From contig MNQK01000031.1 of the NCBI GenBank assembly GCA_001915385.1, positions 133,166 through 197,165 on the forward strand: a stretch of 64,000 bases of DNA. Reading direction: 5' to 3'. The position numbers were made by a program, and so were the translations under genes. A model generated the notes under the pieces. The model worked only from the letters and a program-made list of their open reading frames with translations. It did no database searches and was not told the origin of the DNA. This DNA comes from Bacteroidales bacterium 52_46. Lineage in GTDB: Bacteria; Bacteroidota; Bacteroidia; Bacteroidales; Muribaculaceae. Positions 37,738 through 63,048 of the stretch are shown here, piece after piece; position 1 is the first letter of the stretch; every line of letters begins with the position of its first letter.

Positions 37738-38052
37738 CACACAGACCGTGCAATGCAGTTCAAATAAGACGTAATTCGTCAACGTAGAGCCGAAGGCTCG
37801 GGGGTGTTACTATCCCCGTCCGACGCGTAGCGGAGGGCGGGGTAAAAGGGAATACGCTGTGCGAGCCCACAGAGAGGGCGAGTGTGATGCTCTCTGATTC
37901 ATTATTCTACACAGTCGCCCGTTCCACGGGCTCACTTTATGAATGGTCGCGGTTGCCCCGCCCTCCGCTACGCGTCGGACGGGGATAGTAACACCCCCGA
38001 GCCTTCGGCTCTCAGCTATTTGAACCGCATTGCACAGAGCGTGCGTCCCTAT
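37738..38052. repeat. Large palindromic intergenic element (family C), copy A
   Basis: Termini ...CACAGACCGTGCAATGCAGTTCAAATAAG... and ...CTATTTGAACCGCATTGCACAGAGCGTGCGTCCCTA. Internal perfectly inverted ~56-bp arms GAGCCGAAGGCTCGGGGGTGTTACTATCCCCGTCCGACGCGTAGCGGAGGGCGGGG. Confidence 0.8.
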
Positions 38053-46402: not shown

Positions 46403-46448
46403 ATGCACGTATGGGGGGGTGCAAAACTGCTAAATTCAGGCCAACAAA

Positions 46449-46774
46449 GTAGGGACGCACGGTCTGTGCAATGCGGTTCAAATAAGGAGTAATTCGTCAA
46501 TGTAGAGCCGAAGGCTCGGCGGTGTTACTATCCCCGTCCGACGCGTAGCGGAGGGCGGGGTAAAAGGGAATATGCTGTGCGAGCCCACGTAGAGGGCGAG
46601 TGTGTGTGATGGCTTCAGATGTAGTATTCAACACATTCGCCCGTTCCCCGGGCTCACTTTATGAAAGGTCGCGGTTGCCCCGCCCTCCGCTACGCGTCGG
46701 ACGGGGATAGTAACACCTCCGAGCCTTCGGCTCTCAGTTATTTGAACCGCATTGCACGGTCTGTGCGTCCCTAC
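46449..46774. repeat. Large palindromic intergenic element (family C), copy B
   Basis: Its ends and arms are near-identical to copy A. The central loop is divergent. Confidence 0.8.
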
Positions 46775-46814
46775 TATTGGGGGTTCTGTAACATCCTCAT
46801 GGCATTATTCTTAT

Positions 46815-56285: not shown

Positions 56286-57731
56286 ATGAGCGAGACAATC
56301 AATCAATATATCAACATGACGTGGGTCTATTGGGCGCTATGGATTGTATATGGCGTCACGATTGTCAGCGTCGTGCTGGTGGTGCTGTCGGAGAACCGTA
56401 ACCCTGTAAAATCGCTGGCATGGATTACAGTGCTGTTGCTGCTCCCCGCGGTGGGGCTGATACTCTATTTCCTGTTCGGACGGTCAATCAAGAACAAGCG
56501 CTTCATATCGCGCCGCAACCGCCGGCGGCTCAAAAAGCACGAGCAGGCCAAAGCGTTTGATGCCGCGGCCTCGGGGCTGAGCGTGGAGAACGCGCAGCAG
56601 GTACGGCTCGGACAATCGCTGATGGGCGCCCCATATTACGCCGAAAACAACGCCCGCATCTTCGACAACGGCAAGGAAAAGTTTGACATGCTGTTTCAGG
56701 ACCTGCGCCGTGCCCGACGCTTCATCTACCTGCAATATTATATCTTTGAGGATGACAAAATCGGCAATGCCTTAGCCGACATATTGATAGCAAAAGCAAA
56801 AGCCGGAGTGAAGGTAAAGGTGATATACGACCATGTGGGCAACCTGAAGGTGAAACGGCGCTTCTACAGGCGCATGCGCGAAGCCGGAGTTGAAATCTAT
56901 CCTTTCTTCAAGTTGTCGCTGCTTCTTCCTGGCTCCCGTATCAACTGGCGCAACCACCGCAAACTGTGCCTTATCGACGGGCGCATAGGCTATATCGGCG
57001 GTATGAATGTGGCCGACAGGTATATCGACGGGGGCAAATTCAGCGTGTGGCGCGACATACATCTGCGCGTCACGGGGCCAATACTCCGCAGTTTCAACCA
57101 CTCGTTCTGCTACGACTGGAATTTCATGGGGCGACCCATACCCGAGGATTTCGCGCCGTCCGACGCAAAACCGTCGAGCGCCAACATAGGAATGCAGCTC
57201 ATCACATCAGGTCCCACCGGCCAGTGGGGCAATATTTCGCTGGTATTCCTCAAGGCTATCGGCAACGCCAAGCGCTCAATCTACCTGCAGACGCCATATT
57301 TCCTTCCGACCGAAGGATTGCTTCGCGCACTTCAGGCCGCAGCACTGTCAAAGATTGACGTAAGGGTGATGATGCCGCGCCGGGCCGACTCCTCCGTGCT
57401 GCGAAGTGCATCGTTCTCCTACATAAAGGAATGCCTTCGTGCAGGTATAAAAGTATATCTGTACGAACCGGGAATGCTTCACGGCAAGGTTATAATTGTC
57501 GATGACGACTTTGTCACCGTCGGGTCGACCAACTTCGATTTCCGAAGTTTCGAGCACAACTTCGAAGCCAATCTGTTCATCTATTCCAAGGAATTCAACG
57601 CCCGCATGACCGACATATTCATGCGCGACCTCGAGGACTCTACCCGCGTACTCCCCTACGACTGGGACCACCGTCCGCGCCTTGACAAAATGAAGCAATC
57701 GGTAATGCGCCTCCTCTCCCCGATTCTGTAA
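56286..57731 (+). CDS. cls: Cardiolipin synthase
   Basis: Two N-terminal transmembrane helices. Two PLD-type HKD motifs (HRKLCLIDG and HGKVIIVDD). Confidence 0.88.
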
Positions 57732-57876: not shown

Positions 57877-59526
57877 ATGGCTACAAAACCTTTTGAATAC
57901 CAGGAGATGTTTCCCATGGGGAAAGATACCACCGAGTATTATCATCTGACTTCCGACTATGTCAGAACCGAGACTTTCAACGGTCGCGAAATGCTTGTCG
58001 TTGACCCCGAGGCGCTAACCGTGCTCGCACGCCAGGCCACACACGACAATGCTTTCATGCTGCGCCGCGAGCACAACGAGATGGTCGCAAAGATACTTCA
58101 CGACCCTGAAGCAAGCGCCAACGACAAGTTCGTAGCGCTTACGCTGCTCCGTAACGCCGAAGTTGCAGCCAAAGGCCAGCTCCCATTCTGCCAGGATACC
58201 GGCACAGCAATCATCATGGGCAAGAAAGGCCAGAACGTCTACACCGGCGGCGGCGATGAAGAGCGCCTGTCAAAAGGCGTTTACCTTACCTACACGCAGG
58301 ACAATCTCCGCTATTCGCAGAACGCACCCCTCACGATGTATGACGAGGTGAACACCGGTTGCAACCTTCCCGCCCAGATTGACCTTTATGCTGTAGACGG
58401 CAACGAATACAAATTCGTGTTCGTGGCAAAAGGCGGCGGTTCGGCCAACAAGACTTATCTCTATCAGGAGACAAAAGCCATCATCAACCCCAAGACACTT
58501 GTTCCGTTCCTCGTGGAGAAAATGAAGACACTCGGCACGGCTGCATGTCCTCCCTACCATATAGCGTTTGTTATCGGCGGCACATCGGCCGAGATGAACC
58601 TCGCCACAGTCAAAAAAGCATCAGTCAAATATTACGACAACCTTCCCACTCAGGGGAATGCCCTCGGCCACGCTTTCCGCGACGTCGAACTGGAGAAAGA
58701 ACTTCTCGAGGCATCGCGCAAAATCGGTCTCGGCGCGCAGTTCGGCGGCAAATACTTCGCCCACGACATACGCGTGATACGTCTGCCGCGCCACGGTGCA
58801 TCATGCCCCATCGGTATGGGCGTAAGCTGCTCGGCCGACCGTAACGTAAAGGCCAAAATCAACAAAGAAGGCCTTTGGATTGAGAAGCTCGACGCAAACC
58901 CAGGCGAACTCATCCCCGAAGATATGCGCAAAGCGGGCGAAGGCGACGTTGTGAAAATCGACCTCAACCGCCCTATGAGCGAAATACTCGCCGAACTGAC
59001 CAAATATCCCGTGTCGACGCGTCTGTCGCTCAACGGTACAATCATCGTAGGCCGCGATATCGCCCACGCCAAAATCAAAGAGCGTCTTGACAAAGGCGAA
59101 CCGATGCCCGAATACCTCAAGAACCACCCCATCTATTACGCAGGACCCGCCAAAACACCCGAAGGAATGCCTTCCGGTTCGTTCGGGCCGACCACTGCCG
59201 GACGTATGGACCCGTACGTCGACCAATTCCAGGCGGCAGGCGGTTCAATGGTAATGATAGCAAAAGGCAACCGCAGCAAGCAGGTGACCGACGCATGCAA
59301 GAAGCATGGCGGTTTCTACCTCGGCTCAATCGGAGGCCCCGCCGCAATCCTCGCACAGAACTCAATCAAGAAAGTCGAGTTGCTCGAATACCCCGAACTC
59401 GGCATGGAAGCTATCTGGAAAATAGAAGTCGAAGATTTCCCCGCTTTCATCCTTGTAGACGACAAAGGCAACGACTTCTTCACCGAAATCGCCGCCAAGT
59501 GCGCAGGCTGCCCCATCGCTAAATAA
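57877..59526 (+). CDS. Class I fumarate hydratase (Fe-S hydro-lyase)
   Basis: N-terminus [13 protein letters not shown]...YYHLTSDYV matches the FumA/FumB family. The start is taken at MATKPFEY. Confidence 0.9.
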
Positions 59527-59649
59527 GATACTCCACAGGCATATACCAAACGAAGCAGGGCTGACATACAGGAATGTCAGCCCTTGCTTTATTCAGGTTC
59601 CCATACAGCATGCAAGGGCGTTTCGCCATCGTGGTATTTGTGTAGAATA

Positions 59650-59797
59650 GTGTATCAGAGCGCATCACACACTCGCCCTCTCCGTGGGCTCGCACACGCG
59701 TATTCCCTTTTACCCCGCCCTCCGCTAACGCGTCGGACGGGGATAGTGACACCACCGAGCCTTCGGCTCTCCGCTATTAGAACCGCATTGCACAGAC
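59650..59797. repeat. Family C palindromic element, half copy (one arm, inverted), truncated by a MITE insertion
   Basis: Reverse complement of the copy A left arm. It ends with ...GCATTGCACAGACCGTGCGTCC. Confidence 0.75.
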
Positions 59798-59976
59798 CGT
59801 GCGTCCTACTAGTGGTCAATCTTTTTTCTACATAATTTAGAGCATTGAAAAGGCTTAAATTATTAAATCCTTAATCTAAAGTATTTTATGAACAAAACTC
59901 AGGATAAATAGTTAATAAAGCTTTAAGTCTGAATGACTATTTCACATGTATTATAATTAAAGATTGACCACTAGTA
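59798..59976. mobile_element. MITE-like element with 15-bp terminal inverted repeats (TACTAGTGGTCAATC) and a 9-bp target-site duplication (CGTGCGTCC)
   Basis: Perfect terminal inverted repeats flank a ~150-bp AT-rich core. The direct repeat CGTGCGTCC lies at 59789-59797 and 59977-59985. The insertion splits the conserved terminal motif CGTGCGTCCCTACA of repeat family C. Confidence 0.65.
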
Positions 59977-60037
59977 CGTGCGTCCCTACATCGTTGGCTA
60001 AAATTCAGCAGTTTTGCAACGCCTTTCATACAACCCG

Positions 60038-60113
60038 CAAACAAACAAACAAACAAACAAACAAACAAACAATCAATCAATCAATCAATCAAACAATCAA
60101 TCAATAAGTTTGT
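60038..60113. repeat. Tetranucleotide microsatellite (CAAA)9(CAAT)5CAAA(CAAT)3
   Basis: Read directly from the sequence. It lies about 230 bp upstream of the NlpC/P60 gene. Confidence 0.9.
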
Positions 60114-60341
60114 ATTGCCGAATAGTTACCGGATATTGCCTAAATGTTATAATTTAACAAAATTAACAAAAGATAATATTATATATGATTGCAGGGCTTG
60201 GATATGGGCATCGTTTTCGCTAACTTTGTGAGTAGTAAAAACAACCCGACGTTTCGATTATAATATGAATTGAGGTTTTCAACATTTTCGATCAATCGAA
60301 AGCCTGTTTTCAAAATCGTTTCGATTATAACCCTTACCGAC

Positions 60342-60929
60342 GTGATTAGACGAATATTCATATCCTTAATACTGACCATGGTTGCGGCCACCGTATCGGC
60401 GCAGCATACGAGAGTACCCTCCCACGAAGCAGCCGAGCGCTATGCGGCGATGGAGAAAGTGGATCTTACGCGCCATCTGCCCGACATCAACAACCGCGAG
60501 CTCAAATCATTCGCAAGCGACGAGGCTGTCATGACGGCAAACGACATGCTGTCGCTGGCACGCACGTTCATCGGTCTGCGTTACCGTTACGGAGGCAGGA
60601 CGCCTAAGGGGTTTGACTGCTCAGGATTCACATCGTATATCTTCTCACAATTCGGATATGAACTGAAGCGTTCGTCGCGCGACCAATACCGCTGCGACGG
60701 CGAGATTGTCGACAAAATGCAGGTACAGCCCGGCGACCTTATCTTCTTCACGGGACGCAATTCGAAATCGGGCAACGTGGGCCATGTGGGCATCGTTGTC
60801 GACGGCGACCCTGTCACCGGCCAGATTACATTCATCCACTCCGCCTGCTCATCAGGCATATCAATCGACACGACTGACGACCCTTATTACTCAAAAAGAT
60901 TTATCGGAGTGAAAAGAGTAATCAAGTGA
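60342..60929 (+). CDS. NlpC/P60 (C40) family peptidase
   Basis: Signal peptide (GTG start) IRRIFISLILTMVAATVSAQ. Catalytic region GFDCSGFTSYIF...GHVGIV...H. Confidence 0.8.
   Translation: MIRRIFISLILTMVAATVSAQHTRVPSHEAAERYAAMEKVDLTRHLPDINNRELKSFASDEAVMTANDMLSLARTFIGLRYRYGGRTPKGFDCSGFTSYIFSQFGYELKRSSRDQYRCDGEIVDKMQVQPGDLIFFTGRNSKSGNVGHVGIVVDGDPVTGQITFIHSACSSGISIDTTDDPYYSKRFIGVKRVIK

Positions 60930-60990: not shown

Positions 60991-63048
<2,058 letters not shown>

Follow-up and report, generated by a model that had tools for sequence, protein, structure and literature searches.

A length-variable tetranucleotide microsatellite far upstream of an NlpC/P60 endopeptidase gene in an uncultured human-gut Muribaculaceae species

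Phase variation in Neisseria, Haemophilus, Campylobacter and Helicobacter classically runs through the hypermutation of microsatellites. In the LOS genes lic1A and lic2A of Haemophilus influenzae, CAAT repeats lie inside the 5' end of the reading frame, and frameshift switches translation. The tetranucleotide repeats of that species are the subject of a survey (PMC2651432). Another arrangement is found at nadA of Neisseria meningitidis, where a TAAA tract of 4-13 units occupies about -55 to -85 (Metruccio et al. 2009, PMC2791445); NadR operators flank this tract, which IHF and NadR bind, and quasi-periodic expression has been measured (PMC2791445). The T-tract of the Helicobacter pylori sabA promoter has been called a 'rheostat', for which graded rather than ON/OFF change is proposed (PMC4081817). 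For Bacteroides, phase variation is treated through invertases only in one review (PMC11868660), and a literature search on Bacteroidetes, Bacteroidales and Muribaculaceae found no report of microsatellite-driven variation. Hypermutable microsatellites of promoter regions are known as a kind; in gut Bacteroidales they are essentially unreported, and published work on that order deals mostly with invertible promoters.

The locus considered here, a compound CAAA/CAAT tract in a single Muribaculaceae species, can be set against each of these. Like the nadA tract it is an A-rich tetranucleotide microsatellite upstream of a core promoter, and isolates differ in unit number (4-13 there, ~8-20 here). 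It departs from nadA in position, at about -130 to -197 from the predicted start; in its left flank, which is mobile DNA and is missing in one strain; and in phylum and promoter type, the Muribaculaceae promoter being of the -33/-7 kind. With the Haemophilus repeats it shares the CAAT unit and what would be the same tetranucleotide slippage, but it is intergenic, with only spurious 47-aa ORFs across it. The sabA repeat too stands upstream of the core promoter, and a graded effect is the most plausible kind at the Muribaculaceae tract, if there is any; the sabA repeat is, however, a homopolymer beside the -35 box, as against a compound tetranucleotide tract ~90 nt from the -33 box. The invertible promoters of Bacteroidales are alike in providing a stochastic genetic mechanism able to diversify expression in the gut members of the order, and differ in that site-specific inversion takes the place of the replication slippage supposed here.

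The tract and its alleles

The tract was found in a stretch of assembled DNA of 64,000 nucleotides (hereafter the window), between a class I fumarate hydratase gene and a gene for a MepS/Spr-like NlpC/P60 murein endopeptidase (Table 1). A terminator hairpin follows the fumarate hydratase gene, so that the tract is shielded from upstream transcription. The assignment of the downstream gene to the NlpC/P60 peptidases, first made in the preliminary description, is borne out by its Pfam match; the top NCBIfam match, NF008096, falls under the model cutoff, and PDB relatives include 7cfl, 2k1g and 8xud. Of the 32 variable sites in the gene, 31 are third codon positions when the frame is taken from 60342. 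Gene callers place the start at ATG 60378 or at TTG 60270; the likely start is instead GTG 60342, which would yield the signal peptide MIRRIFISLILTMVAATVSAQ. As the callers used the other two codons, exact-protein look-up with the protein read from the GTG returned no match. Beyond the neighbouring ligA gene, IS66-family genes are present in one locus (L001, 6928-8844) and other genes in another (L002).

Table 1. Coordinates of the tract, its flanks and the neighbouring genes (positions in the window)
Feature	Position	Strand	Remarks
Cardiolipin synthase gene	56286-57731	+	
Class I fumarate hydratase gene	57877-59526	+	
Intrinsic-terminator hairpin	59557-59584	+	After the fumarate hydratase gene
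Half copy of dispersed palindromic repeat	59585-60018		59585-59806 and 59986-60018, split by the MITE
MITE, 170 bp	59807-59976		18-nt perfect terminal inverted repeats
Unique 19-nt left flank ACGCCTTTCATACAACCCG	60019-60037		Separates the tract from the dispersed-repeat terminus
Compound tetranucleotide microsatellite (CAAA)8(CAAT)5(CAAA)1(CAAT)3	60038-60105		17 units, 68 nt, read base by base
(CAAA)8 block	60038-60069		Most mutable part; 2 to 12 units among strains
(CAAT)5 CAAA (CAAT)3 block	60070-60105		60070-60089, 60090-60093 and 60094-60105
Candidate P2 -7-like box TAAGTTTG	60105-60112	+	Its first T closes the tract; identical in every strain
Species-specific spacer between tract and conserved promoter block	60106-60152	+	Missing in L028 and L029 (sister species)
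Conserved upstream promoter block TTTAACAAAATTAACAAAAGATAATATTATATATGAT	60153-60189	+	Core AACAAAAGATAATATT at 60165-60180
Promoter P1 (predicted)	60197-60228	+	-33 CTTG 60197-60200, 20-nt spacer, -7 TAACTTTG 60221-60228
NlpC/P60 5' leader (predicted)	60236-60341	+	Direct repeats CGTTTCGATTATAA at 60250 and 60317 around a hairpin
MepS/Spr-like NlpC/P60 murein endopeptidase gene	60342-60929	+	Pfam PF00877, E 2e-26
NAD-dependent DNA ligase gene	61042-63048	+	Downstream of the NlpC/P60 gene

The preliminary description rightly recognized a compound tetranucleotide microsatellite beginning at 60038, but carried it to 60113 and counted 19 units; its last eight bases (AAGT and TTGT) are unique flank and hold no repeat, the true end being 60105 with 17 units, and the plain (CAAA)n(CAAT)n form given there overlooked the CAAA interruption within the CAAT block. 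On the minus strand the tract reads as (ATTG)/(TTTG). TRF calls it at 60038-60104 (period 4, 16.8 copies, 95% matches, score 85) as the sole microsatellite of the 64-kb window, in which a regex census finds only one other tetranucleotide run of at least three units, (CAAT)3 at 56296. The longest tetranucleotide run in 200 first-order Markov simulations of the window was 2-3 units; a run of 17 is therefore not the work of chance, and the tract is real, with a length far above expectation.

When the LigA, NlpC/P60, fumarase and cardiolipin synthase proteins were looked up by exact match, ~45 loci from ~30 independent samples were recovered, to which a metagenome pattern scan added two further loci. 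The assemblies that supplied alleles encode an identical NlpC/P60 protein, and all belong to one uncultured Muribaculaceae species. Every exact-protein match comes from a gut metagenome, nearly always human; the host is thus an uncultured human-gut Muribaculaceae. The species itself is not among the 80 loci kept from a genome-representative scan; of the representatives among them, Muribaculaceae bacterium Isolate-002 comes nearest, at 90% aa identity, followed by a Bacteroidales MAG at 82%.

Complete tracts, as delimited by the invariant anchors ...CATACAACC and AAGTTTGTATTGCC, take 22 distinct forms in ~30 independent gut-metagenome assemblies, with ~8 to 20 units; every strain examined keeps a tract of at least 8 units. 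Anchor-to-anchor lengths range from 34 to 82 nt and are each congruent to 2 mod 4, so that all differences are multiples of 4 nt. Uninterrupted alleles include (CAAA)4(CAAT)4, (CAAA)5(CAAT)7, (CAAA)7(CAAT)7, (CAAA)10(CAAT)5, (CAAA)12(CAAT)5 and (CAAA)3(CAAT)8. Among interrupted ones are a lineage that starts CAAT-CAAA-CGAT and partly decayed forms with CATT or AATT. The CAAT block has pure runs of 2-8 units among strains, some with CAAA, CATT or AATT interruptions.

The strains that are otherwise indistinguishable are the most telling. The window and L236 have no mismatch over 9450 nt of flank, and carry (CAAA)8 and (CAAA)7, respectively; L233 has (CAAA)5 where L014 and L226 have (CAAA)4, with no mismatch over 4075 and 5254 nt; and L017 and L024, identical over 3761 nt, have (CAAA)7 and (CAAA)8. 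In these three near-clonal pairs the sole difference over 3.8-9.4 kb is one CAAA unit, always in the (CAAA) block; L016, of the same clade as L017 and L024, has 7+8 units. A rough count over near-clonal groups gives ~4 tract events against ~10 substitutions per ~5.5 kb, from which the tract may change, very approximately, ~10^3 times faster than a single site acquires a substitution. From the unit-wise steps we infer slippage as the mechanism, slipped-strand mispairing being a well-established source of 4-nt changes. Most near-clonal groups share one allele (six of seven members in the window clone; also L219/L223, L023/L134, L231/L022 and L229/L015), which argues against very high switching rates and suggests, at the level of the host-population consensus, a moderate mutation rate rather than extreme switching.

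That the tract is a hypermutable locus, as the preliminary description had supposed, is strongly supported by this wealth of complete alleles and by the single-unit differences between otherwise identical strains; the comparison of unit counts across strains proposed there finds that the counts differ, at a locus with a predicted promoter downstream. Two traits of simple-sequence-repeat contingency loci (sensu Moxon) are accordingly present: a length above chance, and a polymorphism of unit number among close strains that outpaces point mutation. Position, the third such trait, is another matter.

Promoter architecture and constraint downstream of the tract

Promoters of Bacteroidota combine TTTG at -33 with TANNTTTGY at -7 (PMC12632263), and a TAnnTTTG scan of the intergenic region gave three -7 matches. 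One is part of promoter P1, predicted from consensus and cross-species conservation, with a predicted transcription start near 60235. The sister species, L028 at 90% aa identity and L029 at 82%, are both without the tract and have TTTG-N20-TAACTTTG and CTTG-N20-TAATTTTG, respectively, the common form being (C/T)TTG-N20-TAAYTTTG. In the window as in L028 and L029, the core AACAAAAGATAATATT of the block upstream is positioned exactly 56 nt ahead of the -7 box, and this core is a candidate activator or UP-type site of a conserved NlpC/P60 promoter. Since this architecture is common to tract-free relatives, P1 would be the ancestral promoter. A microsatellite is found upstream of none of the homologous NlpC/P60 genes in 18 Muribaculaceae or Bacteroidales loci; its gain is therefore specific to one species.

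The second -7 match is the P2 candidate at the edge of the tract, taken up below; the third (60165-60158, minus strand) is without a -33 box and is not conserved in L028 or L029. A sigma-70 scan, with 2 sites against 2.2 expected, is uninformative because the organism uses -33/-7 promoters. A minus-strand promoter in which (TTTG)n would supply the -33 boxes was considered and rejected: the left flank is without TAnnTTTG, and the proximal TTTG stays equally far from that flank whatever the unit number.

From the end of the tract it is 92 nt to the -33 box of P1 and 116 nt to its -7 box; the tract is thus distal, rather than between core promoter elements. The suggestion of the preliminary description that the tract could alter promoter spacing is, in its classical sense, unsupported at such distances. 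Its analogy with the CAAT repeats of Haemophilus fails as well, as those repeats are within reading frames, whereas this tract is intergenic, ending at 60105 ahead of a gene that starts at 60342 (or at 60270 or 60378). Contingency loci have their repeat in a reading frame, or amid or across the core elements of a promoter, where a change of length switches expression; this tract has neither position and only abuts a candidate -7-like box. Its position is that of the nadA type, a tetranucleotide tract upstream of the predicted core promoter of the gene in question. Frameshift switching through an ORF across the tract was also rejected, since only the spurious short frames exist there; the longer frame across it in MITE-free strains is low-complexity junk that begins in the dispersed repeat.

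Variation among 17 haplotypes shows where the surrounding DNA is held constant. Variable columns make up ~21% of third codon positions and 18% of the nlpC-ligA spacer. From the tract to the start codon 13 of 236 columns vary, through ~8 events, which is ~4-5 times below third positions; in the 47 nt that adjoin the tract, the figure is two columns (P ~0.001 against the third-position rate, binomial estimate). On the other side, ~30 nt to the left of the tract are conserved within the species. The tract thus adjoins constrained DNA, and by the low variation this DNA is probably regulatory. The 47-nt spacer contains TATTGCC twice, at 60113 and 60134, 21 nt (two helical turns) apart, and the pair may be a binding site for a regulator. 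In the predicted leader, 3 of 107 columns vary, and L028 keeps both CGTTTCGATTATAA repeats, with a different hairpin sequence. An Rfam scan of 59300-60500 (E up to 1) found no RNA family for the tract flanks or the leader, which may be an undescribed cis-regulatory leader.

One haplotype (L012) has six bases swapped just upstream of the P1 -33 box (60189-60194, TTGCAG to AAATCA), a single multi-base event in an otherwise invariant promoter.

Possible effects on the NlpC/P60 gene

One way to understand the locus, and the one that we consider probable, is as a slipped-strand hotspot far upstream of the NlpC/P60 gene, with either no effect on that gene or a modest graded one. ON/OFF switching of the gene by the tract is unlikely. 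On this account the compound (CAAA)n(CAAT)m tract would have arisen within one human-gut Muribaculaceae species; slipped-strand mispairing would add and remove 4-nt units; the tract would act as a length-variable spacer outside the core promoter of a housekeeping NlpC/P60 gene; and the outcome would be no change, or a modest graded change, in NlpC/P60 transcription. An absent or small graded effect is favoured by the location of the tract outside the ancestral promoter, next to an upstream flank that is mobile and dispensable, and again by the nature of the gene, a core housekeeping hydrolase, together with the stability of consensus alleles within most clones. A required upstream partner is further argued against by L016, which has different DNA to the left, and by the selfish character of the upstream flank. 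What would count against a complete lack of effect is the constraint on the 236 nt, the adjoining 47 nt included; the -7 box that abuts the tract; and the persistence of the tract at 8 units or more.

A second perspective takes nadA as its guide. Here the unit number would set the distance and the helical phase between flanking sites, a protein-binding site on the left and, on the right, the TATTGCC repeats, the conserved block and P1, such that NlpC/P60 transcription would vary quasi-periodically with allele length. The general plan agrees with nadA, in which the TAAA tract is likewise upstream of the core promoter (PMC2791445); both immediate flanks are conserved, the left one for ~30 nt and the right one for 47 nt; and the tract varies in just the type of step that such a device needs. 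The geometry is less accommodating. The tract is farther off, at about -197 to -130 as compared with -55 to -85; the left flank consists for the most part of a dispersed-repeat end, and of wholly other DNA in L016. As this flank is mobile DNA and differs between strains, a fixed upstream partner for a spacing mechanism is doubtful. Allele lengths, moreover, span all helical phases with no visible preference, and the gene encodes a core housekeeping hydrolase rather than a surface antigen. Regulation of the nadA kind, as a distal rheostat or as phase variation, is accordingly unlikely at this locus.

A third perspective begins at the very edge of the tract. The consensus -7 box TAAGTTTGT begins on its last base, so that the tract could be the -33 and upstream region of a species-specific promoter, P2, with length or CAAT/CAAA composition tuning a variable transcript atop that of P1. 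The match to TANNTTTGY is exact, abuts the tract and is invariant in all strains, and the 47 nt downstream of TAAGTTTG are strongly conserved within the species. A partner is wanting, however: no TTTG stands at a 17-23 nt spacer from TAAGTTTG, and no allele supplies even a TTTG-like -33 there, the region always being CAAT/CAAA. The motif, besides, arises at 0.95 per kb by chance (both strands counted), so a chance match is plausible. Finally, at least two CAAT units are nearest the -7 box in all alleles; therefore, most length changes fall far from the region of polymerase contact. We regard a P2 of this kind as quite improbable.

More broadly, it is doubtful that the tract is a slipped-strand expression rheostat that retunes NlpC/P60 transcription, whether through the abutting -7 box or through the spacing of its flanks. 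If it does tune the gene, gut Bacteroidales would have a second source of heritable expression heterogeneity, independent of invertases, and the locus is a lead toward heterogeneity of that sort. NlpC/P60-type hydrolases may shape the peptidoglycan fragments seen by the host. Were the rheostat true, cell-wall turnover and the release of muropeptides to the host would vary among the strains and subpopulations of a single commensal.

Mobile DNA to the left of the tract

The left side of the tract is a patchwork. The dispersed element found there in half copy is elsewhere a near-perfect intergenic palindrome of ~350 nt, with full copies in the window at 46420-46780 and 37786-38048 (BLAST); its DNA folds at -145.7 kcal/mol (z = -20). 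An Rfam match of this element to MIR898 was rejected as a spurious long-hairpin match, at 43.5 bits against a gathering score of 75. The MITE that splits the half copy, whose presence beside the tract the preliminary description had noted correctly, is flanked by a 9-bp target-site duplication, CGTGCGTCC, at 59798-59806 and 59977-59985, and is single-copy in the window. It is found in the window clone, L236 and L025; most strains have an empty site with a single CGTGCGTCC, and the insertion is therefore recent and polymorphic.

Larger changes also occur on this side. In L016 the entire left side, the 19-nt flank included, is replaced by the upstream region of recA, which is divergent from the NlpC/P60 gene; at the junction (1928-2235 of that locus) CA-rich recA upstream sequence meets the tract exactly at its 5' edge, and to the right of it the downstream 3.4 kb are identical to those of L017 and L024. 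This junction, present in one sample, reflects either recombination with its breakpoint at the microsatellite or a join made during assembly, and a metagenome scan found no second copy of it. A metagenome scan for the CAAA/CAAT junction returned 111 matches, of which 2 are the tract locus; the rest, with unrelated flanks, resemble ordinary microsatellites of other organisms, most likely eukaryotes, and no second bacterial locus with the junction was found. L235 is rearranged with a breakpoint within the dispersed element, and in L227 (from ~3545 onward) unrelated sequence follows GCATGCAAGGGC, at about 59618 of the window and so likewise within that element; there are eight similar places.

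Such surroundings invite the thought that the tract is part of the MITE or dispersed element beside it, or a scar left by one of them, and has nothing to do with the NlpC/P60 gene. The dispersed repeat stops 19 nt short of the tract, the tract lies 52-61 nt to the right of the MITE, and the region is a rearrangement hotspot (L016, L227 and L235). Yet the copies of the dispersed element at 37786-38048 and 46420-46780 end without a CAAA/CAAT tract; MITE-free strains keep theirs; and in L016 the element is gone, while the tract remains on the NlpC/P60 side. By these comparisons, membership of the tract in either element is largely refuted, and an origin as their scar would be very improbable indeed.

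The notion that the length differences are artefacts of assembly or sequencing in a tract that is actually stable can be dismissed with near certainty. Contigs do break within the tract, though only in Logan assemblies at k=31 (L007 and L008), and one megahit contig begins at its 3' end (L026), but the ENA and JGI assemblies rest on k-mers and reads longer than the 34-82 nt that the tracts measure. The five independent assemblies of the window clone, from different pipelines, all give 17 units, so that the counts are reproducible rather than noise from assembly; the same alleles turn up in independent near-clonal samples; every length difference is a multiple of 4; and the interruptions CGAT and CATT are lineage-specific and track the flank haplotype. 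What the tract does cause is contig breaks in short-k assemblies. Returning to the slipped-strand hotspot, the locus illustrates that a long tetranucleotide tract can arise, persist species-wide and go on mutating in a commensal of the Muribaculaceae. At a minimum the locus serves as a high-resolution strain marker, which separates strains identical over 9 kb.
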